DNA of 56,818 nucleotides from positions 371,771-428,588 of the forward strand of contig JAUSJO010000002.1 of NCBI GenBank assembly GCA_030647205.1, given 5' to 3'. This DNA is from a bacterium (GTDB lineage: Bacteria > Patescibacteriota > CPR2 > UBA1875 > JAJYID01). Position numbers and translations under genes: made by a program. The notes under the pieces were generated by a model. It saw nothing but the letters and a program-made list of their open reading frames with translations, was not told the origin of the DNA and did not search any database. Below are positions 3,503-23,650 of this stretch, one piece after another (the stretch's first letter is position 1; each line of letters begins with the position of its first letter).

Positions 3503-4032
3503 AAAAGAAAGAAAAAGATATAAAGAAAGAAGTGCTTAAGAAAATTGATTTAGGCGAAGTAAAGATGAAGTCAAAAGCACACTTTGAAGTCCTTAAGGTT
3601 TTATGGGCTATACTTATGACGGCATCTGTATTAGTTGCTATATTTCTCATAAATCTTGCTCTTTATTTGCCTAAAAGGGCAGGCGTGTTTCAGGGGGTTC
3701 GCCCTGAAAGACTAAATGTCATGCTATCATCAATCCCTTGGTGGTTGGTTGTATTTGGGGCTATATTTATTGGCATAGCAGTTTATATCTATAAAAATTA
3801 TGAAGGGGGATACAAAAAACATCTTTCGGCAATTATTATTACGATAGCTGTTTTAGTTATAACTATCGGGGGAGTATTGGCTGTTACTAATATTAATGAA
3901 AATATAGAGAGACGTCCGGGGATGAAGCAGTTCTATCAGTGGAACGAAAAAAGATTTGGTCCGCCCGGTATGAGATCTCCTATGCATAGGGACCGTTTGA
4001 ACCAAAAGCCGGACAATTTTAAGAGATTTTGA
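3499..4032 (+). CDS. membrane protein translationally coupled to the ECF sigma factor (candidate anti-sigma factor)
   Basis: Start overlaps the sigma-factor stop (ATGA). Lys-rich N-terminus is followed by several hydrophobic helices. No motif of a known anti-sigma family, so the role is inferred from position only. Confidence 0.5.
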   Translation: MKKKEKDIKKEVLKKIDLGEVKMKSKAHFEVLKVLWAILMTASVLVAIFLINLALYLPKRAGVFQGVRPERLNVMLSSIPWWLVVFGAIFIGIAVYIYKNYEGGYKKHLSAIIITIAVLVITIGGVLAVTNINENIERRPGMKQFYQWNEKRFGPPGMRSPMHRDRLNQKPDNFKRF

Positions 4033-4093
4033 AATATTTTTCTCCCCCTACCGTATTATAGGTGTAAGACGGTAACTTAACGAAAGGAGAAAA

Positions 4094-4570
4094 ATGAAAA
4101 CGAAAACTTTAGCAGTCACAGCGGTAGCCCTCGGTACGTTTGCCTTAGCGGGCATATATGGAGTGGGTGTTATCAAGGCAGAAACCGCCGAAAATGGTCG
4201 TGATACTATTGTCCAGAAGATAGCAGATAAGTTCAAGCTGAACAAAGATGAAGTAAAAGCAGTCTTTGATGAAAACAGAGCGGAGAGACAGGGAAAAATG
4301 GAGGAACGTTTTGAGGCCAATCTTAATAAAGCCGTAGAAAGTGGCAAGATTACAGAAGCACAGAAAAGTGCCATCTTGACTAAACATAAAGAGATACAAG
4401 CCAAGCGTGACGGGCTTAAGGATTTGCCACAAGAAGAAAGACATGATGCTATGCAGAAGATTCATGAAGAAATGGAAAACTGGGCTAAAGACAACGGTAT
4501 AGACATGAGCCAGATTGCCGGTCCAAGAGGAGAGGGACACCACGGAGGAAACTTCGGTCCAAGACTCTAA
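4094..4570 (+). CDS. secreted coiled-coil protein (158 aa)
   Basis: GGAG SD. Signal peptide MKTKTLAVTAVALGTFALAG, followed by charged helical sequence. Confidence 0.55.
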   Translation: MKTKTLAVTAVALGTFALAGIYGVGVIKAETAENGRDTIVQKIADKFKLNKDEVKAVFDENRAERQGKMEERFEANLNKAVESGKITEAQKSAILTKHKEIQAKRDGLKDLPQEERHDAMQKIHEEMENWAKDNGIDMSQIAGPRGEGHHGGNFGPRL

Positions 4571-10946: not shown

Positions 10947-14180
<3,234 letters not shown>

Positions 14181-14264
14181 AAATTTTTTTCAACCAGTAA
14201 TCAGTGATTGGATTTAAAAATAATTCAATTTGCACCATCAAAATGTATAAGTGTATTAGGCAGT

Positions 14265-14384
14265 GTTCTGGTGGCTTTTGCGGAAGGGTCACACCTGTTC
14301 CCATCCCGAACACAGAAGTTAAGCCTTCCAGCGGCGATGATACTTGAGTCATCAAGCTCTGGGAAAGTAGCGCGTCGCCAGAAC
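14265..14384 (+). rRNA. rrf: 5S ribosomal RNA
   Basis: CCTGTTCCCATCCCGAACACAGAAGTTAAGCC core. Terminal helix GTTCTGGTGGC / GTCGCCAGAAC. Confidence 0.9.
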
Positions 14385-15010: not shown

Positions 15011-16045
15011 TTAGGACGGGATTTCTACGGCCTTTGTCCTTGGCTGCAGTTTCCTTGTCCTTTTACCGCTGTTGATGTGACCAACAATCAGGTTATAAAG
15101 TATTTCCTTGGCTTTTCCGGTCGCAGAGCAAAGGCTTGCTACATACGGATCGGAAGAGACAGGAAACAGTTTTATTTTCCTGACAAGGGGGGCTTCGATG
15201 AAAAGCCTGTTTTCCTTCCAGAAGTTCGTGTGGTTGGAAAGCACAGTAGCCAGAACCATCAGGTATGACGACCGGATGTACGGTGCGCCACCTGAGTACG
15301 TGATACACTGGATACCCCAACACTGGTCCACTAGATGGAAGAAGGTCTTCACATTGTCCCGGAAAATATTTTTTCCGGTCCTGCCCATTATTTTTTGGGC
15401 ACCAGCACCCAGCTCCTTGATCCCGCTTGATTTGCCGGGACCAATGTGAGCATGCAGTGCTCCTGAAACCTTCAGGAGCGTGACTGCTGAAATGAGCTCT
15501 GATCTTCTCATCCGCTGTTGCCAGTTAACCCTGCCGTGAAGCACAAAGGTTTTGTCTTGGCACAAACGATAGAGAAGATCAACCACTTCTATATCATAGC
15601 GCATATTCCGGAGCAAAACGTTTGACGATAGCTTTGTCCGGTCAGCGTTTAGGATCTTGAAGCGGTCTCTTTCCCATTCTTCGTTGGTACCGAAATGAAC
15701 GGTGGCACCTAGCCTGGGAAGTCTCCCTCCATTTTCCTGCATAATCTGCCTAGCGGCACTGACGCGCTGAAGGCCGTCGATGATATAGACCGGGTTTTGA
15801 AGGTAGAAGCCGGAACTTCTCTCCATATACTTCTCTCCGCGCATTCCCAGGTCAATATCGGGAATAGAACCCTCATGAAATCCCTCTATGATAGAGGTGA
15901 TTGTCGTAAGGGGAAGAACTTCTCTCTGGTAGTCTGCTACCTGGAGAAGCGGTAGGGAGTCGGGATCGATCCTCCCTCGAAGGATGATTTCTCCTTCAAG
16001 TGTCTCGTCGAGCGCTGCGTGGTTCATTTTGATGCTCTCACTCAT
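15011..16045 (-). CDS. DGQHR/DndB-like (DUF262-type) ParB-nuclease superfamily protein
   Basis: ADYQRE ... VYIIDGLQRVSAARQI ... RDRFKILNADRTKLSSN matches the YQR / DGQ(H/Q)R / F-x-x-N layout of ParB-like DGQHR and DUF262 domains. AGGAGG SD 9 nt before ATG 16045, so the longer ORF to 16105 is rejected. GC-rich. Confidence 0.6.
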   Translation of the reverse strand: MSESIKMNHAALDETLEGEIILRGRIDPDSLPLLQVADYQREVLPLTTITSIIEGFHEGSIPDIDLGMRGEKYMERSSGFYLQNPVYIIDGLQRVSAARQIMQENGGRLPRLGATVHFGTNEEWERDRFKILNADRTKLSSNVLLRNMRYDIEVVDLLYRLCQDKTFVLHGRVNWQQRMRRSELISAVTLLKVSGALHAHIGPGKSSGIKELGAGAQKIMGRTGKNIFRDNVKTFFHLVDQCWGIQCITYSGGAPYIRSSYLMVLATVLSNHTNFWKENRLFIEAPLVRKIKLFPVSSDPYVASLCSATGKAKEILYNLIVGHINSGKRTRKLQPRTKAVEIPS

Positions 16046-16345
16046 ATAGAGCATCCTCCTTTGGATAGTAGGTCTAGCTCCCTTAGGATAGCGACCTTTT
16101 TTCAAAGTGCCTGCCGATGGATTATAACATAACTTGTATCATATGGAAAGAGTTTGTGCTTATTACTGTGTTTTCAGGCTTTTCTCAGCACCACTCGTTA
16201 GTATTCATAAAAAAGCTACAAAAAATCGTCCGAATATTCTTTGTTTTGACCAATGCTTTCAAACCCCAGTAGCTTTAGACTTGAATCAAACACAAACAAA
16301 AGCAGGATGTTGTGTAATAAAATTTAATTGAATGGAGGTGGGAAA

Positions 16346-16605: not shown

Positions 16606-16770
16606 ATGGGTAAAACTATTCGATTTGGAGAGCGTAGAGGAGAGAAGTTTAAAACGTATTCAAAAAAATACCCCGAGCTTGTTTCACCGAGGGTTTTCTA
16701 TAATAAACTAGATACAAAAGGGCCGAGGTCTAAGCAGTTAGCCAAGAAAAGGCGAACAACCTATAAATAG
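16606..16770 (+). CDS. small highly basic protein (54 aa), uncertain
   Basis: GAGAGG 10 nt before ATG. K/R-rich. 3' end overlaps the convergent gene by 10 nt. Confidence 0.3.
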   Translation: MGKTIRFGERRGEKFKTYSKKYPELVSPRVFYNKLDTKGPRSKQLAKKRRTTYK

Positions 16771-17327
16771 TGAATTGCACTATTTATAGAGGCCACAAGT
16801 GACAAAACGCAAGGGACAAGTTGTTTTGTGTTTTGGGATTTGATTATTGTTTGTGTCTTGTCGCCTGCATCTTGTATTTTTGAGATAATTCTCTTCCTGA
16901 CTTCGCGGTCTTTTCTTTCATTTACTTTCCAGTGGCAGTCACAGGCAAAACAGCCAAATGTGCTTCTGTCTTTTTGCAGTGAGTATTCGCCGCACTTCGG
17001 GCAGGTTGCACGCTTGTCGAGCCATTTATCATAACTTTCGAGGCACTCTGTGATGTGGTCCTCGTCAACTTCTATATTATATTCGTGTGCCAATCTGCGG
17101 GTTTCTTCCCACGCCTCGTGCTCCAGCCCCAAAAGCTCTACATCATAGTTGTAGGAGTAGTGACCCAGTCTCATGTGGGCTATTTCATGAAGCAATGCCA
17201 AAGAACCATCACTGTTTTCCAGCTCCTCAGGGACATAGGTGATAGTCTTGGTATTGGCGTTAAACGAAAACACTTGCCCCGGGAGGCAGTTGTTTTCATC
17301 GATGAATTGTTTTATGGCGACATTCAT
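16761..17327 (-). CDS. ImmA/IrrE-like HExxH zinc metallopeptidase with C-terminal zinc ribbon
   Basis: LLHEIAHMRLGH followed by LEHEAWEETRRLA (H-E-x-x-H ... E-x-E-A layout of COG2856 proteases), then CPKCGEY...CFACDC. Confidence 0.55.
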   Translation of the reverse strand: MNVAIKQFIDENNCLPGQVFSFNANTKTITYVPEELENSDGSLALLHEIAHMRLGHYSYNYDVELLGLEHEAWEETRRLAHEYNIEVDEDHITECLESYDKWLDKRATCPKCGEYSLQKDRSTFGCFACDCHWKVNERKDREVRKRIISKIQDAGDKTQTIIKSQNTKQLVPCVLSLVASINSAIHYL

Positions 17328-17380
17328 TGGTTCCTATTTTATCCTTCAAGTTATCCCCATGTAAAGCATGAGGGGAATGA

Positions 17381-17412
17381 AAAACACCCCATTCAGTAAT
17401 GAATGGGGTGTT
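17381..17412 (-). terminator. rho-independent terminator of gene 17455-17835
   Basis: 12-bp perfect stem ACACCCCATTCA/TGAATGGGGTGT. T-run on the minus strand. Confidence 0.8.
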
Positions 17413-17454
17413 GTATAGTTGTTTGCTCGAAGCTATAGAAAAGTGTCAGGATGT

Positions 17455-17835
17455 CTATTCCCCGAAGTTACAACAGGAAATATTTCCACCATCGACAATG
17501 CGAACCTTGTCCAGTCGCCCTTCAATGAGCATTGGATACTCACCGTCGGGAACACCTACCGGCATACCGGGCTTGTTGGGATCTTCAGGATAATCGAGTT
17601 TGTCGATGAAATACCTTTGAACCTTCCGGATATAGTCAGACATCCATAGGGGAGCCGGAGGATAGATGACTTTGCGAATTTCAACCGGCGTTTCCTCATT
17701 GGCGTAGAAGGTTGCCTGACCGACATACTTGATGGCGGTCTGGACTTCTTCTTTGAAGGTATCAAAAACGATTTGGCTGTATTTTACCCTACGCATTCCC
17801 GGCTTTAGGTCTTCAGGACCAAGTTTTAGCTTCAC
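17455..17835 (-). CDS. hypothetical protein (126 aa)
   Basis: GGAGG SD (AACAGGAGGTAATACTGTG context). Has its own terminator. No motif recognised. Confidence 0.5.
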   Translation of the reverse strand: MKLKLGPEDLKPGMRRVKYSQIVFDTFKEEVQTAIKYVGQATFYANEETPVEIRKVIYPPAPLWMSDYIRKVQRYFIDKLDYPEDPNKPGMPVGVPDGEYPMLIEGRLDKVRIVDGGNISCCNFGE

Positions 17836-18043
17836 AGTATTACCTCCTGTTGTCTAACGGTTTAAAGTGCTAATTTTAACAGGCTTCTGTGTTCTCTTTT
17901 CCTACCTGACTTAAAAAATAATATTAACATTATATAAGAAATTTGTAATATAGTCAATATTTTTCGCTTGAGTTATTTTGTTCGTAAAGCATAAGCATGA
18001 AATAATTTACCATTAAGGTCTAATATATGATAAAATTTTAAGT

Positions 18044-18643
18044 ATGGAGAAAAGCCAGGAAAACAAAATAGCCGATTTTCTATTTGAAATTGGGACCATG
18101 AGAAAACTGCCCAGAATGCATCAACAGATGTTTCTGACTCAGGATTTATCGGATAATATTGCCACTCATTCATATAGAGTTGCGATGATAGCTTGGTTTC
18201 TGGCAAAAATGGAAAAGGTCGATCCTTACAAAACAGTAATGATGGCCATGTTGCATGATGCTGGCGAGATAAGAAGTGGTGACCATAACTATGTACATAA
18301 AAAATATATAAAAGTTTACGAAGATGAAATTGCTGAGGATCAGTTTGGGGACCTACCGTTTGATGATTTTCTTGAAATGAATAAAGAGTATGAAAAAAGG
18401 GTAAGCAAGGAAGCGATAGTCGCTAAAGACGCCGACCTGATAGATCAAATACTGCTTCTAAAAGAATATGTTCAACAAGGGAATACTGAAGCTCAAATAT
18501 GGCTCAGGGGTAAGGGGAGCTTAAATAAGAATATTCAATACAATAGCCTAAAAACAGTTTCGGGTAAGAAGCTGGGAAGAGAGATTATCTATTGTAAGGT
18601 CTCAAAATGGTGGGAAAATATCTGGACTTCTAAAAACAGGTAG
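18044..18643 (+). CDS. HD-domain phosphohydrolase (YfbR-like 5'-nucleotidase family)
   Basis: HSYRVAMIAWFLA ... LHDAGEIRSGDHN. TAAAAT lies 7 nt before ATG. Confidence 0.75.
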   Translation: MEKSQENKIADFLFEIGTMRKLPRMHQQMFLTQDLSDNIATHSYRVAMIAWFLAKMEKVDPYKTVMMAMLHDAGEIRSGDHNYVHKKYIKVYEDEIAEDQFGDLPFDDFLEMNKEYEKRVSKEAIVAKDADLIDQILLLKEYVQQGNTEAQIWLRGKGSLNKNIQYNSLKTVSGKKLGREIIYCKVSKWWENIWTSKNR

Positions 18644-18733
18644 ACCTCTTTATTCAGTACAATTTCGCTCTGATTTTTATAATAAATTGTAAAGATGAGG
18701 GTCCCTTTGCTCTGAGATTTAGATAAAAGCCTC

Positions 18734-18762
18734 TTGCCAAAGTATTTATGGTATGGTATAGT
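18734..18762 (+). promoter_or_regulatory. promoter of secreted-protein cassette 1
   Basis: TTGCCA-17 nt-TATAGT. Homologous to the promoter at 19687-19715. Confidence 0.55.
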
Positions 18763-18891
18763 AAACGCGATAGGAAAAATACCCAGAAACTTGGGAGAAC
18801 ATTTATAACGATAAATAATTTCCATTTTCCCATCTGTTAGCCAATGCTGGCAGGTGTAGTTTGCAAATCCAAAGACTAAAGGAGAGGTGAA

Positions 18892-19599
18892 ATGCGATCA
18901 GTTATGATAGGGATAATTGCTGCATTGCTCGTGTTTTCTGCATCCTCGGGGGTTGCGGTTGCGAGCGAGGTACCGGAGTGCTACATTACGTATAGCGGAT
19001 ATCCGGGTGTGCTCCATGGGAGTGCCGGAGAGACGGTGTATATGGGAGTCTCTACCGCTTGCCCCGCCACAGCGACGATCTACTGGGGAGGAACAAATAC
19101 GCAGGTCATCGACATCGATCAGGCTGCGGGTGGTGTTTATCTGGACATTCCGATGTCGGTGAAGAACAACTCGACTCGCATAGTTGAATTAGACGGTACC
19201 AATGGCACGGCCTCGTATCATACTGAGGCACGTTTGGTAATCGGCAATCCTCCGGAGTTACATCTCCAGCTGGACTTCTATCATCAGATGGCCTACTGGA
19301 GGAGCTATGCAGACTACTGTGCGAGGACTTTGTCCGCTGACTATGTTCTGTATAACCCCGGAGACAATGACGCATATGCTATTATGGTAGGCGAGAGAGC
19401 GTCATGTAGTAATGGCGTGGAACCAATCGGTCACTCATTGAGTCTGGTGTCAGACAAAATCCCCGCAGGGGGAATGATCAATATCACCAGGCAATACAGG
19501 GTATCCCAAGGTGTCACTTACTTCAGAACTTACCTGGGGATTCGGGCCGAGGACGTGAACGGATATGTACATGACTTCGGGGTTTTGCCCGAGGAATAA
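18892..19599 (+). CDS. secreted protein, paralog 1 (235 aa)
   Basis: AGGAGAGG SD and a signal peptide. Shares PPELHLQLDF..AYWRSYADY..YVLYNPGDNDAYAIMV..YFRTYLGIRAEDVNGYVHDF with 19844-20650. GC-rich. Confidence 0.6.
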   Translation: MRSVMIGIIAALLVFSASSGVAVASEVPECYITYSGYPGVLHGSAGETVYMGVSTACPATATIYWGGTNTQVIDIDQAAGGVYLDIPMSVKNNSTRIVELDGTNGTASYHTEARLVIGNPPELHLQLDFYHQMAYWRSYADYCARTLSADYVLYNPGDNDAYAIMVGERASCSNGVEPIGHSLSLVSDKIPAGGMINITRQYRVSQGVTYFRTYLGIRAEDVNGYVHDFGVLPEE

Positions 19600-19620
19600 C
19601 ACATATGGAAATGAAAAACA

Positions 19621-19647
19621 AAAGGGCGCTCCGCTGGAGCGCCCTTT
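19621..19647 (+). terminator. rho-independent terminator
   Basis: AAAGGGCGCTCC-GCTG-GAGCGCCCTTT. Confidence 0.75.
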
Positions 19648-19686
19648 CTCATTTACATAATTAATTTTAGTAAACAGAAAAACCCT

Positions 19687-19715
19687 TTGTCAAAGCGCTT
19701 ATTTTAAGATATAAT
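19687..19715 (+). promoter_or_regulatory. promoter of secreted-protein cassette 2
   Basis: TTGTCA-17 nt-TATAAT, followed by stem-loop AGAGGGAT...ATCCCTCT (19727-19758). Confidence 0.6.
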
Positions 19716-19843
19716 GTCTTTACTGCAGAGGGATTACCGTGAAAACGGGTATCCCTCTTTGCATGCAACATTTATTTCCTTTCCATCTGCTAGACATCAG
19801 GTCGGTGGGTGTATCCTATAAAGCTCGAGTCAGGGAGGTTAAA

Positions 19844-20650
19844 ATGTCGAAAAGGGTAATGCTAGTCTTGTTGCTTATTAGCTTAATGATTCTTGTGCCA
19901 GTGAGCGAGGCGCTCTCAGGCGGCGGCCCTGGGGCCGGAGGACCGGGTCCGGAAGGTTGCTGGGCCTACTTCATAGGCAACGATCCGAATGTGCATCTCG
20001 GGTCGGTTACTGATATCTACGCCGGTCAGGTGCTCGACTTCAACGTCATGGCCAACTGTCCCGTCGCGATTAGCAACACATGGAACAGCGAGATCGCTGC
20101 AGTAACCCAGTATGACATCGACAATAGCCCATATGGGTGGAGCGATTTCCCGATGATGTTCACGACTGACCCGAATATGGCTCCGTCTGCCGGCCATCAC
20201 ATCAATCTAACCTTTGAGGTTGATCCGACGGTAACCTATCAGTACATCCGGGTCATCATTGGTGAGCTGCCACCGCTGGATTTGCAACTTTCTTTGGCGA
20301 TGAGGGGAGCGAGATGGGCGAGCTATGCTGACTACCAGTCGAGGCACCTAACTGTAGGCTATCGCATCACAAACACTGGCACCAATGAAGCGTATAATGT
20401 GATGCTAACTGGAGCGACAGCGACGAATGGAGTGACCCTCTCGACAGAGTGCTCCTATGAGAACCAAGGCGATTGTTATCCGAGGTATCTGATGGACACT
20501 TTGTCTGGCGGAGCCACTGTCGACTTCTCGTCGAGGTTCGTTGTGCCGCCAGGTACGGCGAACTTCAGGACAACCGTCACTATGGAAGCAGTCGACTATA
20601 ACAATCAGTTGCACTACTTCCCTCCAGGAAGTCCGCCTCCCACTCCGTAA
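19844..20650 (+). CDS. secreted protein, paralog 2 (268 aa)
   Basis: GGGAGG SD 5 nt before ATG 19844, so the GTG 19739 extension is rejected. Signal peptide MSKRVMLVLLLISLMILVPVSEA. LPPLDLQLSL..ARWASYADY..YRITNTGTNEAYNVML..NFRTTVTMEAVDYNNQLHYF. GC-rich. Confidence 0.6.
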   Translation: MSKRVMLVLLLISLMILVPVSEALSGGGPGAGGPGPEGCWAYFIGNDPNVHLGSVTDIYAGQVLDFNVMANCPVAISNTWNSEIAAVTQYDIDNSPYGWSDFPMMFTTDPNMAPSAGHHINLTFEVDPTVTYQYIRVIIGELPPLDLQLSLAMRGARWASYADYQSRHLTVGYRITNTGTNEAYNVMLTGATATNGVTLSTECSYENQGDCYPRYLMDTLSGGATVDFSSRFVVPPGTANFRTTVTMEAVDYNNQLHYFPPGSPPPTP

Positions 20651-20686
20651 AGCATCGCTCGGAATAAAAGGAAATAAAAAACTATC

Positions 20687-20710
20687 GGGGCGCGCCGCAA
20701 GGCGCGCCCC
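20687..20710 (+). terminator. rho-independent terminator
   Basis: GGGGCGCGCC-GCAA-GGCGCGCCCC. Confidence 0.7.
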
Positions 20711-20826
20711 TTCCTACGTTTAAAATAAAAAAAGTGTAGGGAAAAGGCTTCAAATGAGGCCTTTTTGGTGGTATAATATCAAAACTTGTTTACAGGGCAA
20801 ATGTACTTTGGATAAAAGGAGAGGAA

Positions 20827-21168
20827 ATGCCGACTGTCAATATCTACTATAAGAATCATTCAGAAGAAGAAACCGTGGTCAAGATTTATGGTGCCATAGA
20901 TGAACTGCAGTCATTTATTGCAAAGGAGTTAAGTTGCAGTAGTATCTTTCTGAGTTTAAGTGAAATCAGTATTCGCTTTATAAAGGTTGATTATCTGAGC
21001 AAGATGATAGGCGACATCGAGATTGAGGTAAATGCCGCCGCGTTTCCCGAGAGAGTCGAGAAACAGGATGAGTTCTGCCGTAATCTAGATAAGTTTCTAG
21101 AGCAAGAAACTGGGATTACCAACACCAAAACATGGCTAATTCTCTCAGAATTGGGGCATAGCATGTGA
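20827..21168 (+). CDS. hypothetical protein (113 aa), possibly tautomerase-superfamily-like
   Basis: AAAGGAGAGG SD. Begins Met-Pro (MPTVNIYY) with a beta-alpha-beta-like pattern. Assignment is tentative. Confidence 0.45.
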   Translation: MPTVNIYYKNHSEEETVVKIYGAIDELQSFIAKELSCSSIFLSLSEISIRFIKVDYLSKMIGDIEIEVNAAAFPERVEKQDEFCRNLDKFLEQETGITNTKTWLILSELGHSM

Positions 21169-21176
21169 AGGAGTGA

Positions 21177-21386
21177 TTGAGATTGGCCGATGAAAAGCTA
21201 GTAGCAGTGCAGATAGGCAACATGATAGTCGGGCCGGTTAACCCTAAGCAGCTTGCAATCCTGAAAAAACGGGAAGAAGTTGTCCAGAGGTGGTGCGAGG
21301 AGCATGGTAAGAAAATTGAGGAGTTAGGTCTGAAAGAGATCCTCGAAATTCGCTCACTTCCCGAATGGAAAAACCCGGTGACTTGA
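21177..21386 (+). CDS. hypothetical small protein (about 67-69 aa, TTG start)
   Basis: GAAGGAG overlaps the upstream stop. Only TTG starts are available (21177/21183). Terminator follows. Confidence 0.35.
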   Translation: MRLADEKLVAVQIGNMIVGPVNPKQLAILKKREEVVQRWCEEHGKKIEELGLKEILEIRSLPEWKNPVT

Positions 21387-21394
21387 TGAAGTTT

Positions 21395-21422
21395 AAAGTC
21401 CGCTTTTAAAAAGCGGACTTTT
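21395..21422. terminator. hairpin terminator
   Basis: AAAGTCCGCTT-TTAAA-AAGCGGACTTT. Confidence 0.7.
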
Positions 21423-21425
21423 CCT

Positions 21426-21458
21426 TTATATCTTTTTTCTCATCAATGACATTTTGTG
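21426..21458 (-). repeat. diverged remnant of the U32 peptidase gene 3' end (copy C)
   Basis: Minus strand reads CACAAAATGTCATTGATGAGAAAAAAGATATAA = HKMSLMRKKI*. This is the same terminal peptide as the U32 gene, with about a quarter of the nucleotides changed. Confidence 0.6.
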
Positions 21459-21463
21459 ACAAT

Positions 21464-21492
21464 AAAAAAGTCCCGGTTTAAATCCGGGACTT
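21464..21492 (-). terminator. terminator of gene 21520-21897
   Basis: GTCCCGG-TTTAAAT-CCGGGAC. T-run on the minus strand. Confidence 0.65.
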
Positions 21493-21519
21493 GTGTCTGT
21501 ATAGTGTGCCGCTTGTTTT

Positions 21520-21897
21520 TTAGAGGACCGCAAATACCTCTTTGAAGATCTCGCCATGAAAATGGCTGTTTCTTCCTTTGGGATCATCGGGCAACCGGAA
21601 GAAAATCTGATCTCCTGAGAGGCCGTTTTCATCTCTCAGCTCAACGAATCCGCCCCCAGCGAAGTACTTGTGGCCGTGTTTTACCTGATGGATCTGCATT
21701 TCCTCGTTCTCGTCGCCGATAGCGACCAGCGCATCAAACATCTCGGCACTGCCGCCAACCTCAAGGGGGATGCATGACGTGGCCGGTCCGAAAATCACAC
21801 AGTATTTAGCGCTTTTCCTTTGCCCGAAGAATAAAACCACATCTCCATCTGGCAAACCTTTTAATACTGGTTTATCTTCTTCTATTACAATGTGCAA
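21520..21897 (-). CDS. hypothetical protein (125 aa, TTG start)
   Basis: GAGGAGG SD 5 nt before TTG 21897. The longer ORF to 21963 lacks an SD. No motif recognised. Confidence 0.45.
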   Translation of the reverse strand: MHIVIEEDKPVLKGLPDGDVVLFFGQRKSAKYCVIFGPATSCIPLEVGGSAEMFDALVAIGDENEEMQIHQVKHGHKYFAGGGFVELRDENGLSGDQIFFRLPDDPKGRNSHFHGEIFKEVFAVL

Positions 21898-21981
21898 GAT
21901 CGCCTCCTCGTGTTGTGTGTAATCTGATAAGCAAATTATAGCACTTCTAAGCCAAATTGTCAATCAATAGGAGTTACTAAT

Positions 21982-22020
21982 TCTTTTTCCTCATTAAACT
22001 CATTTCGGGGTAGAGATTTT
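21982..22020 (-). repeat. exact 39-bp copy of the U32 peptidase gene 3' end (copy A)
   Basis: TCTTTTTCCTCATTAAACTCATTTCGGGGTAGAGATTTT is identical to 22318-22356. Reads NLYPEMSLMRKKN* on the minus strand. Confidence 0.85.
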
Positions 22021-22072
22021 GTGTTTTATATCAATCTATTGATTCTAATTATTCTTATGTTAGTATAAATTT

Positions 22073-22312
22073 ATGCAAAAGAATTTAATTCTAATAATAG
22101 TAGCAATTGTTATTATTGTTATAAGTAGCCTAATCTTTGTCTTTTTTTACTACGGTCCCGTGTGGAGTGAAAAACCGCAAATTTCTAGTAAACAGTGTGC
22201 ACATCTAGGCGGAAGATCGGTGAATACCTTAAATGGTGCAACTTGTTCTGGAAAAAAATTTCTCGGAGAGCTTACAGGTATGAAGTGTCCTTGTATTTGT
22301 TGTAAAGAATAG
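22073..22312 (+). CDS. small membrane-anchored Cys-rich protein (79 aa)
   Basis: N-terminal TM LILIIVAIVIIVISSLIFVFFYY. C-terminal CAHLGG...CSGKK...CPCICC. Lies between repeat copies A and B. Confidence 0.45.
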   Translation: MQKNLILIIVAIVIIVISSLIFVFFYYGPVWSEKPQISSKQCAHLGGRSVNTLNGATCSGKKFLGELTGMKCPCICCKE

Positions 22313-23650
22313 TTAAATCTTTTTCCTCATTAAACTCATTTCGGGGTAGAGATTTTTTAGTTTGAGATATGCCATTTGGCCTGTTTTACCGGGATTTATA
22401 ACTTCTAATTCTTTTCCCGACTCATCAAGAATGCCGAGGACTCTTTCTTTGTAAACTTTGTTGGGAGTTATGACGTCCATGTTATCTCCGACTTTGATTT
22501 GATTTCTGACTTCAATGTAGTTCCAGTTGTCATCAGGATCACTATTTTTGTCATCCTGAGGTACGAAGGATCTCGAGATTCTTCCTTCGTCAGAATGACG
22601 GGAGGGTAGGTCTGAATGATGGGGAGATAGAGCAGAATGCCGCTTTGGGATAGGGCGAACTACGGCTATGAAATTATAGTTTCTCACTGGTTGGCGGGAA
22701 GGATAGGTTTCGCCCTTTTTCGCATTTCCGAATGCAAAGCCTGTGGTATATCCGCGGTAGTTTAATGTGACAAGTTCTTTCATCAGCTCCTTTTTCAGTT
22801 TCGCATCATATTTTCCCGATTCGACCGCATCTAGGGCAGTTCGGTAGGCGCGCGTGACGACACCGAGATAGTAGATAGATTTATTTCGGCCTTCTATTTT
22901 AAGTCCTGAGATTCCGGATTTTTGGATTTCATCCAAATGTTCTATAAGGGCTAAATCTTTAGAATTCATTAAATATGTGCCGTCACCGTTTTCTTCGACA
23001 GGGAAATACTCTCCGGGGCGGAGCTTTTCCTCTAGATAAACTTTATAGTTCCATCTGCATGGCTGGGCGCAGTCGCCGAGATTTGCTTCGCGGCCTGTTA
23101 TATAGGCGGACAGGAGACAACGGCCGGAGTAGGAGATACACATAGCGCCGTGGACAAACATCTCGAGTTCTATGTCCGGTACTGCATCATGAATCTTCTT
23201 TATTTCTTTCAAGGATAGTTCGCGCGCCAATATCACTCTTTTCACGCCAAAATCCTTCCAGAGCTTCACTGCCTCTGCATTTACCGTATTTTGTTGTGTT
23301 GAAACGTGAATCGGGATTTTTGGTGCATTATCCTTGACTAGCTTTAAAACTCCCATGTCGGCGATGACAAATGCATCGGGATTTAGGGCTGCAATTTTCT
23401 TAATGTCAGAAGCTAGGGTTTTGAGATGTTTATCGTGAGCAAAGATATTGAAAGTGATGTAAACTCTTTTACCGAGTTTGTGTGCGTACTGAATCGTTGA
23501 TTTAATTTCGCTAATTGTGAATCGTACCTCTGTCTTTCGCATACTATATTTCGCCATGCCGAGATAGACGGCATCCGCGCCATACTCAAAAGCAAAGCGC
23601 GCTTTCTCCGGATCTCCGGCGGGTAAAATTAGTTCTGGTTTTATCTTCAT
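22313..23650 (-). CDS. peptidase U32 family protein
   Basis: ELILPAGDPEKARFAFEYGADAVYLG and EMFVHGAMCISYSGRCLLS signatures. ATG 23650 has TATAAT 7 nt upstream, so the longer ORF to 23725 (which runs through a hairpin) is rejected. Confidence 0.85.
   Translation of the reverse strand: MKIKPELILPAGDPEKARFAFEYGADAVYLGMAKYSMRKTEVRFTISEIKSTIQYAHKLGKRVYITFNIFAHDKHLKTLASDIKKIAALNPDAFVIADMGVLKLVKDNAPKIPIHVSTQQNTVNAEAVKLWKDFGVKRVILARELSLKEIKKIHDAVPDIELEMFVHGAMCISYSGRCLLSAYITGREANLGDCAQPCRWNYKVYLEEKLRPGEYFPVEENGDGTYLMNSKDLALIEHLDEIQKSGISGLKIEGRNKSIYYLGVVTRAYRTALDAVESGKYDAKLKKELMKELVTLNYRGYTTGFAFGNAKKGETYPSRQPVRNYNFIAVVRPIPKRHSALSPHHSDLPSRHSDEGRISRSFVPQDDKNSDPDDNWNYIEVRNQIKVGDNMDVITPNKVYKERVLGILDESGKELEVINPGKTGQMAYLKLKNLYPEMSLMRKKI
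22318..22356 (-). repeat. 39-bp repeat copy B (functional 3' end of the U32 gene)
   Basis: Identical to 21982-22020. Encodes ...NLYPEMSLMRKKI*. Confidence 0.85.
22591..22653 (-). repeat. 3 x 21-bp tandem repeat inside the U32 gene
   Basis: CAGAATGACGGGAGGGTAGGT / CTGAATGATGGGGAGATAGAG / CAGAATGCCGCTTTGGGATAG. Encodes heptads KRHSALS-PHHSDLP-SRHSDEG. Confidence 0.7.

Follow-up and report, generated by a model that had tools for sequence, protein, structure and literature searches.

The DNA analysed here, a 56.8-kb stretch of contig JAUSJO010000002.1 that we call the window, contains a U32-family gene whose last codons are present in three co-oriented copies. These copies, termed units A to C with increasing distance from the gene, are separated by two intervals; we refer to each interval as a cassette and to its gene as the cargo. 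The window also carries core genes (IF-2, S1, PriA, SecDF, RecJ, RelA and HisRS) as well as 23S and 5S rRNA genes, at a GC content of ~40%. The nearest relatives of the U32 protein were found in metagenome-assembled genomes (MAGs) labelled Patescibacteria, also known as the Candidate Phyla Radiation (CPR), and the nearest relative of one cargo protein is labelled Candidatus Microgenomates. The U32 protein contains the Pfam domains Peptidase_U32 (1.5e-89) and U32_C (3e-09), and its orthologues in Patescibacteria MAGs share 65–89% identity with it; exact-protein look-ups returned no entry identical to the window protein. The gene, the units and the cassettes are arranged as follows, with E values obtained by nhmmer using the unit profile described below.

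22313 to 23650, minus strand: U32-family gene, 445 aa, ATG at 23650, stop at 22313–22315; its last codons are the putative docking site
22313 to 22360, minus strand: unit A, the functional U32 3' end (...KNLYPEMSLMRKKI and stop), E 1.9e-13; core TTAATGAGGAAAAAGA at 22317–22333; block identical to unit B at 22318–22356 (39 nt)
22021 to 22312, plus strand: cassette 1 cargo; open reading frame (ORF) at 22073–22312, 79 aa, with an N-terminal transmembrane helix and a Cys-rich tail (...CPCICCKE)
21977 to 22022, minus strand: unit B, an orphan copy (...KNLYPEMSLMRKKN and a TAG stop), E 6e-11; core at 21981–21997; the 39 nt identical to unit A at 21982–22020
21459 to 21976, minus strand: cassette 2 cargo with promoter, Shine-Dalgarno (SD) sequence, ORF and terminator, ~50% GC against a background of ~40%; starts with ATTAGTAAC... 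and ends with ...CACAAAATGTCATTGATGAGAAAAAAGA
21963 to 21935, minus strand: cassette 2 promoter, TTGACA-17-TATAAT with an extended -10, 12/12 sigma-70 match
21897 to 21520, minus strand: cassette 2 ORF, 125 aa, TTG start at 21897 after GGAGG (SD)
21492 to 21468, minus strand: cassette 2 intrinsic terminator
21426 to 21458, minus strand: unit C, a short orphan copy (HKMSLMRKKI and stop), E 2e-7; core at 21430–21446; U32-like sequence begins only at about -26/-33

The 39-mer TCTTTTTCCTCATTAAACTCATTTCGGGGTAGAGATTTT, which spans the codons KNLYPEMSLMRKK, occurs exactly twice in the window, at the positions listed for units A and B, against 0 occurrences expected from 100 shuffles. An earlier note, made from the sequence alone, had described this block as the final 39 nt of the U32 gene. 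The exact repeat stands, but the block stops 5 nt before the gene end, where unit A reads ATT TAA and unit B AAT TAG. The distinctive ATTAG ending of unit B was also found on the left unit of L243, a contig described below.

A fuzzy search of the 57 kb returned unit C as the sole further match, with 7 mismatches over 30 nt at 21426–21455. Although diverged, it still translates as MSLMRKKI followed by a stop, as the earlier note had reported, and no other extra place in the window does so. All six differences within nine codons are synonymous, including the serine codon (AGT/TCA). The differences between copies preserve codons because both serine alleles, TCN and AGT, exist in genuine U32 gene ends of relatives. 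TCA, the allele of unit C, is the commoner one at these ends, and the copies therefore derive from functional U32 ends; this agrees with the proposal that unit C evolved under protein-level selection in another lineage. The core of unit C together with the first 6 nt past its stop is 89% identical to copy 2 of the related locus L168, and on its right side it is the orthologue of the distal L168 copy. The stacking of U32 3'-end copies in the window is thus confirmed as a real observation.

Each inter-unit interval holds one ORF, in accordance with the earlier description. The cassette 1 protein had no match in Pfam or PADLOC, and a homologue with 42% identity (E 1e-17) is located between units 2 and 3 of the related locus L171. 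Cassette 2 is self-contained; judged by its promoter, SD sequence, ORF and terminator, it is predicted to be a complete expression unit, and the suggestion that the cargo might be decayed does not hold for it.

Arrays and empty sites at the U32 locus of relatives

Relatives were gathered by protein-guided scans and exact-protein look-ups, and their loci, denoted here by L numbers, were searched by nhmmer with a profile built from the ~58-nt region around the U32 stop; the unit itself measures ~45 nt. The search yielded a total of 27 units across 14 clade loci, eight of which carry two or three.

Three units: the window, L088/L001, L003, L170, L171
Two units: L168, L169, L173
Single unit: L002, L004, L086, L087, L089, L172

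In addition, L243, a 1.2-kb contig without a U32 gene, carries two clear units and a decayed third. All units lie on the U32 strand, co-oriented and downstream of the gene, with E values from 1e-15 to 1e-6, and the arrays occur in independent assemblies from different pipelines and samples. The U32 gene of the window is intact and ends in MSLMRKKI, and several relatives end in cassette-derived tails, namely KKLKTTH in L003, KKINK in L173, KKIKK in L087 and KKIAP in L172.

The three copies of the window are not a fixed feature of the clade, a possibility that the earlier note had raised; the number and content of the arrays vary, and the empty sites that it had anticipated exist. On the distal side, the variable interval is delimited by the following features.

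21395 to 21421, plus strand: perfect hairpin (13/13) followed by a T-run, immediately distal to unit C; marks the end of the array
17328 to 21394, no strand: remaining variable interval, free of units, with a 69-aa ORF, a 113-aa ORF, two GC-rich secreted paralogues and an HD_3 gene
16761 to 17327, minus strand: the "anchor" gene, 188 aa, with HExxH and a zinc ribbon; closes the variable interval

The anchor gene bounds the variable interval in seven genomes (the window, L004, L088, L168, L169, L171 and L172). In L004, the anchor gene comes next after U32, at a distance of 161 nt. A single GNAT gene separates the two in L172, one ABC-F gene and a unit separate them in L169, and ~5 kb lies between them in the window and in L168. 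A further empty site was identified in L002, in which the U32 stop abuts a reverse-strand short-chain dehydrogenase/reductase (SDR) gene; L003 has the same SDR gene after a third, 74-nt copy. The two loci are collinear, with 89.8% identity over 869 nt, beginning inside the U32 3' end. Synteny between the window and L168 extends to either side of the array, at 85–94% identity; the two have the distal copy in common, and L168 carries one VRR-NUC-like cassette where the window carries two different ones.

The repeats are confined to this locus and this clade. In 128 distant U32 loci, the unit profile gave only one marginal match (13 nt), and no repeats of the U32 5' end were found upstream of the gene in 12 clade loci, though the upstream neighbourhood is also variable. 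The exact 39-mer had no match in genome contigs, and the unit had none in phage or plasmid records. Degenerate core patterns gave 0 matches (first pattern) and 5 matches (second pattern) in viral contigs, none of which extends over the unit; the second pattern returned 56 stretches in genome contigs, where the new matches are to the pattern only and likewise do not extend over the unit. The unit is consequently not a widespread generic element, the other alternative that had been raised: it is absent from viral, phage and plasmid sequences, and its genome matches are at the level of chance. A metagenome scan returned, among the matches listed, mostly distant U32 genes and added L088–L090, and a scan of the wider CPR with a C-terminal-domain alignment gave about five Saccharibacteria/CPR loci, with no arrays and mostly short downstream DNA.

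Several features of the surroundings were recorded alongside. The hairpin at 21395–21421 could be the terminator of the 69-aa ORF (21177–21386), and the interval 17328–21394 is mostly syntenic with L168. Its two paralogous signal-peptide proteins (18892–19599 and 19739–20650; shared ...YADY..R.L...) have a GC content of 50–55% against ~40% in the background and no Pfam or PADLOC matches, with homologues in the same interval of L168 and L086. Just past the anchor gene, a 364-aa ORF (15011–16105; 344 aa in L168) with the motif ...IIDGLQRVSA... had no Pfam match; we take it to resemble ParB/DUF262-type nucleases. The 23S rRNA gene (10947–14183) extends ~310 nt beyond the Rfam model length, which may be an insertion or intron, the 5S rRNA gene lies at 14267–14383, and the 57-kb window has no 16S gene and no tRNA gene.

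The U32 gene itself carries other insertions. A 50-nt palindrome at 22550–22599 of the window is in frame within U32 and reads RHSDEGRISRSFVPQDDK; the L168 orthologue lacks it. The U32 gene of L004 (653 aa) has much longer in-frame insertions at the same two positions (1440–1780 and ~2160 onward), which resemble miniature inverted-repeat transposable elements (MITEs) and contain repeats of CTGTCATTCC...GGAAT, and one such insertion breaks the frame of U32 at ~5690–5760 of L002. Palindromic elements thus seem to enter a conserved enzyme repeatedly, at loops that tolerate them. At 1553–1588 of L004, within the MITE-like insertion in the middle of U32, there is a unit-like stretch, GGGAATGACATTAATGAGAAAAAGGGA (nhmmer E 2.4e-4); it was not counted as a unit copy, being probably a chance likeness to a MITE arm.

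Cassettes shared and re-positioned between genomes

The same cassettes were observed in different genomes and at different positions of the array. The VRR-NUC-like cassettes of L168 and L170 are 95.4% identical over 483 nt (98% at the amino acid level), and the U32 genes of these loci are 78.8% identical in nucleotides and 86% in amino acids. The cassette occupies position 1 in L168 and position 3 in L170, where it lies distal to an ABC-F module that is common to L169 at host-like divergence.

Cassette 2 of the window recurs in L243, a Microgenomates contig, with 82.8% nucleotide and 81% amino acid identity and with units on both flanks. The similarity begins at the ATTAG with which the left unit ends, covers the right unit completely, and then stops. 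Unit C was co-inherited with the cassette in L243 (37/44 nt) and is that cassette's own site. Two further cassettes follow cassette 2 in L243, the next one with a 130-aa ORF, and the unit after it has the tail ATCAACAAATAG, a match to the beginning of the Trp-repressor-like module found behind U32 in L173 and L087. The cargos that recur at different positions are the 79/72-aa and 217/214-aa proteins, the nitroreductase, the Trp-repressor-like protein and ABC-F. Overall, the cargo comprises HAD hydrolases, ABC-F proteins, a nitroreductase, a nuclease-like protein and small unknowns, encoded in both orientations, and the modules span 0.1–1.7 kb and are mostly single genes.

The earlier note had suggested searching cargo homologues for linkage to integrases and to U32 3' fragments. 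The cassette 2 homologue in L243 is flanked by units. L232, which encodes a 67% homologue of the VRR-NUC-like protein, contains no unit and does not represent a U32 site. One 48% homologue of the cassette 2 protein (JGI 3300075153, 2339–2746) lies ~900 bp from a 273-aa Phage_integrase-family gene (3648–4469) beside lepA. Adjoining the VRR-NUC-like homologue of L232, a 138-aa ORF (623–1039) has a weak Zn_ribbon_recom match and is possibly a serine-recombinase fragment.

Two further observations concern individual modules. Directly past the last unit of L171 (3113–4502), a SMODS nucleotidyltransferase and a SLATT-like protein with two transmembrane helices form a pair resembling cyclic-oligonucleotide-based antiphage signalling system (CBASS) defence. 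A perfect 26-nt palindrome, GTTACACTAATATGTATTAGTGTAAC, is present on both sides of the Trp-repressor-like gene in L173 (879–904 and 1335–1360) and in L087 (4413–4438 and 4877–4902 in reverse-complement coordinates); these palindromes might serve as paired operators or mark the two ends of a nested element.

Proposed recombination site, candidate recombinase and rival explanations

In a register alignment, the core TTGATGAGRAARAAG (gene strand, codons L-M-R-K-K) is the only stretch common to all 27 units, and most units continue through ATATAA(TG). The identity blocks of different arrays overlap solely in ATGAGGAAAAAGA (-17 to -5). The right edge of the units is always the stop codon or a few nucleotides either side, and some cassette sites measure just 21–26 nt.

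Several ways of resolving the event further were tried and set aside. Shared cassettes bound the crossover to the unit only; an apparent junction in copy B, at -5, is equally well explained by two point mutations in the last codons. Windowed identity gave a mosaic signal, uninformative as to an imported U32 3' segment. If the 3' end were replaced through an upstream crossover, almost every event would require its own crossover point. A transposon or casposon with target-site duplication was rejected, the duplicated length varying from 15 to 92 nt and the cassette ends having no inverted repeats.

No recombinase was found in the window by reading the ORF translations, by Pfam searches of ten otherwise unidentified ORFs or by a six-frame search with a tyrosine-recombinase hidden Markov model (HMM), in agreement with the earlier note. 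A 270-aa tyrosine recombinase gene was identified in three lineages (L244/245/246, L090 and L004), where it is co-oriented with U32 and overlaps its start codon; L090 is the closest U32 relative of the window (89% amino acid identity over the available 270 residues). The catalytic motifs of this protein (HxLRHSFATHLL...GH...Y) are intact. It scores 210–221 bits, about the cut-off, against NCBIfam NF040815 ("site-specific tyrosine recombinase/integron integrase"), and 207–235 bits against the integron-integrase model TIGR02249, below the cut-off of 265. Its best relative in the PDB is IntI4 (2A3V, 4.8e-48), with XerA at ~1e-37; it aligns to IntI4 residues 10–210 and 242–317, skipping ~30 residues where the IntI-specific extra domain sits. 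The three independent assemblies of one of these lineages break soon after the U32 stop, in L244 (83 nt), L245 (37 nt) and L246 (126 nt), as expected if a repeat or a strain-variable array follows. A dif-like site was also sought upstream of the recombinase gene; the region is conserved between L244 and L090, and nothing convincing emerged.

We consider it probable that small cassettes were inserted serially and site-specifically at the U32 3' end by a recombinase supplied in trans. The empty sites, the variable arrays and the shared cassettes support the serial 3'-end integration proposed in the earlier note, which would proceed by conservative site-specific recombination. The last ~five U32 codons, i.e., the core, would serve as the recombination site. 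A cassette would be a small, circularisable molecule made up of one site resembling the U32 3' end and of cargo, as a rule a single gene that brings its own promoter and terminator and may point either way. Its partner in recombination would be the genic site or any of the orphan sites already present in the array. With each insertion, an intact U32 end would be restored and one more orphan copy left distally, giving the order U32-A-cassette 1-B-cassette 2-C. The crossover would fall within the ~15-nt core, or at least within the unit, and any unit of the array is probably usable. The enzyme would have to act in trans because the cassettes carry no recombinase, and the best candidate is the 270-aa IntI/XerA-like tyrosine recombinase coupled to U32.

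A number of observations weigh against this mechanism, and several of them fit a different one, which we hold to be possible though rather unlikely: homology-driven shuffling without a dedicated recombinase. Here, rare illegitimate duplication of part of the U32 3' end would be followed by RecA- or homology-facilitated exchange of taken-up DNA through the 20–90-nt units, with U32 or the distal flank as a long anchor, and cassettes would be added, replaced or looped out. The left edge of the orphan copies varies from -21 to -92 (-21, -26, ~-33 and, as the mode, ~-45). The most distal copies of L003, L088 and L168 reach 74–92 nt, and distal copies are 92–95% identical to the resident gene; such long, near-identical copies are suggestive of duplication or homologous exchange rather than of a fixed att core. 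The absence of dyad symmetry and of a hairpin is atypical of simple tyrosine-recombinase sites: 12 folds covering both strands gave no unit hairpin (z -0.9 to +1.3), and the best dyad score of the unit was 6.74/11 against 6.61 ± 0.84 in shuffles, at no consistent position. No recombinase was found in the ~25 cassettes or in the flanks of the array-bearing loci, and the loci adjacent to the candidate gene give no array information, the L004 site being empty and the L090 and L244–246 contigs ending at or just after U32. Insertions in L172 and L089 have no distal copy, and the left arms of copy 2 in L169 and L170 are more divergent than the ABC-F cassette that the two share. The window and L243 share unit, cargo and unit as a single block, and U32 itself looks mosaic between lineages, as homologous exchange would have it. 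This account is, however, at odds with the confinement of the repeats to the 3' end when both sides of U32 are variable, and with sites of 21–26 nt, which are marginal for RecA. It also does not explain why many lineages reuse the same sharp unit, whose right edge is invariably at the stop codon, why the recent cassette of L170 lies distal to an older, vertically inherited one, or why U32 has a recombinase gene coupled to it in three lineages.

The modules could alternatively be debris of larger integrase-carrying elements (prophages or integrative and mobilizable elements, IMEs) which repeatedly used the U32 3' end as attB and then eroded; we judge this unlikely. Erosion is the classic account of stacked 3'-end fragments at tRNA and tmRNA genes (PMC3146451; bioRxiv 10.1101/2020.12.28.424599), and the long distal fragments would fit elements carrying a long replacement 3' end. 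Yet no gene or gene fragment of integrase, phage or conjugation type is present in the ~25 modules, compact modules of one gene are found again, with unchanged ends, at other positions and in other genomes, cassette 2 has the features of an intact expression unit, and viral contigs lack the site. Still less probable is that the unit is a chromosomal dif-type dimer-resolution site and that the cassettes are integrative mobile elements exploiting Xer (IMEX) or similar to plasmid dif (pdif) modules. In Xer systems with a single recombinase, such as XerS/difSL, gene and site can stay together, and the recombinase of L004, L090 and L244 is XerA-like. On the other hand, a dif or pdif site is an imperfect palindrome of ~28 bp with a spacer of 6–8 bp, and successive pdif modules switch orientation, whereas the unit contains no imperfect palindrome and all units are direct. 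The surroundings are not terminus-like either, as GC skew, which may be dominated by coding-strand bias, stays positive over all 57 kb, and the rRNA and translation genes lie on the plus strand on both sides of the site. We give almost no weight to chance similarity, an assembly artefact, or a regulatory or terminator repeat unrelated to mobility; metagenome assemblies may contain artefactual repeats, and the sequence is rich in A/T and in purines, but the independent origin of the assemblies, E values down to 1e-13 with none expected by chance, the codon-preserving differences, and units that are unstructured and not found elsewhere all speak against it.

Comparison with known systems

CPR bacteria have genomes of <1 Mb with few recognisable mobile elements, and how they gain and lose accessory genes is poorly understood. 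The U32 locus is a hotspot for such change, defined and recurrent, with a short site that can be recognised, a pool of single-gene cassettes that move between lineages and a candidate recombinase. The unit profile provides a simple way to mine CPR metagenomes for flexible genes, and if the link to the recombinase holds, the system would provide a small tool for site-specific integration and would parallel integrons in its evolution. In the literature searched, we found no account of arrays of this kind in CPR bacteria.

The staphylococcal cassette chromosome (SCC) elements and their psiSCC derivatives at the 3' end of rlmH (orfX) resemble the U32 arrays in targeting the last codons of a conserved protein gene that is kept intact. 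In both, direct repeats of the 3' end bound the elements and tandem stacks are formed, and some SCC-type elements have no recombinase and are served in trans. SCC elements are 3–60 kb long and are moved by large serine recombinases (CcrAB/CcrC), many of them self-encoded. Unlike these, the U32 modules measure 0.1–1.7 kb and are recombinase-free, the nearby candidate enzyme is of the tyrosine type, and the hosts are CPR bacteria.

The ssrA islands of Dehalococcoides are likewise arranged in tandem downstream of one single-copy gene, with ~20-bp direct repeats of the 3' end, strain-variable content and a small host genome (PMC3146451). These islands are ~10 kb or larger and 16 of 31 carry the serine integrase DsiB; about half have no integration module and were discussed as cis-mobilisable by accretion (PMC3146451). 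The U32 arrays differ in that the target is a coding sequence rather than tmRNA and that 0 of ~25 modules carry a recombinase. Accretion is also known for cis-mobilizable elements (CIMEs), att-flanked elements without recombination or transfer genes that are mobilised by the integrase of a related element, e.g., at the fda 3' end in Streptococcus thermophilus (PMC5704250). The arrays described here may similarly have grown by site-specific accretion; CIMEs, however, are derivatives of known integrative and conjugative elements (ICEs) or IMEs that co-occur with an integrase-bearing partner at the site, and no such partner was seen here. In Prochlorococcus, tycheposons and other tRNA-flanked islands target tRNA genes and encode their own tyrosine recombinases and replication modules (bioRxiv 10.1101/2020.12.28.424599). 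The likeness lies in the streamlined genomes, the reuse of one site, older elements pushed inward, partial copies of the target, and adaptive or defensive cargo; in contrast to tycheposons, the U32 target is a protein-coding gene and the modules have no recombinase. With IMEX and pdif modules, the arrays share recombinase-less modules bounded by copies of the site of a host recombinase, in tandem; they differ in the non-palindromic, direct units and in a location away from a skew switch.

In its logic, the system also resembles integrons and clusters of attC sites lacking integron-integrases (CALINs). The cassettes, mostly with a single ORF, have one site each, the recombinase lies outside the cassettes beside the primary site, arrays without an adjacent integrase and an integrase with an empty site (L004) both occur, and the closest solved relative of the candidate enzyme is an integron integrase. 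The U32 units, however, mimic a protein-coding 3' end, and the arrays lack traits that define integrons: the units have no hairpin of the attC type, which forms in single-stranded DNA, the recombinase is without the IntI insert, and the cassettes have their own promoters and mixed orientation, whereas integron cassettes are mostly promoterless, co-oriented and expressed from a common promoter. We tentatively put forward, as a doubtful extension of serial site-specific insertion, a CPR-specific, integron-like gene-capture platform in which a short IntI/XerA-like recombinase is encoded in an operon with U32, the last U32 codons form the primary site, and the cassette sites are unstructured, double-stranded mimics of a coding 3' end. 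If true, this platform would constitute a second, independently evolved cassette system, one that works without the attC hairpins of integrons.

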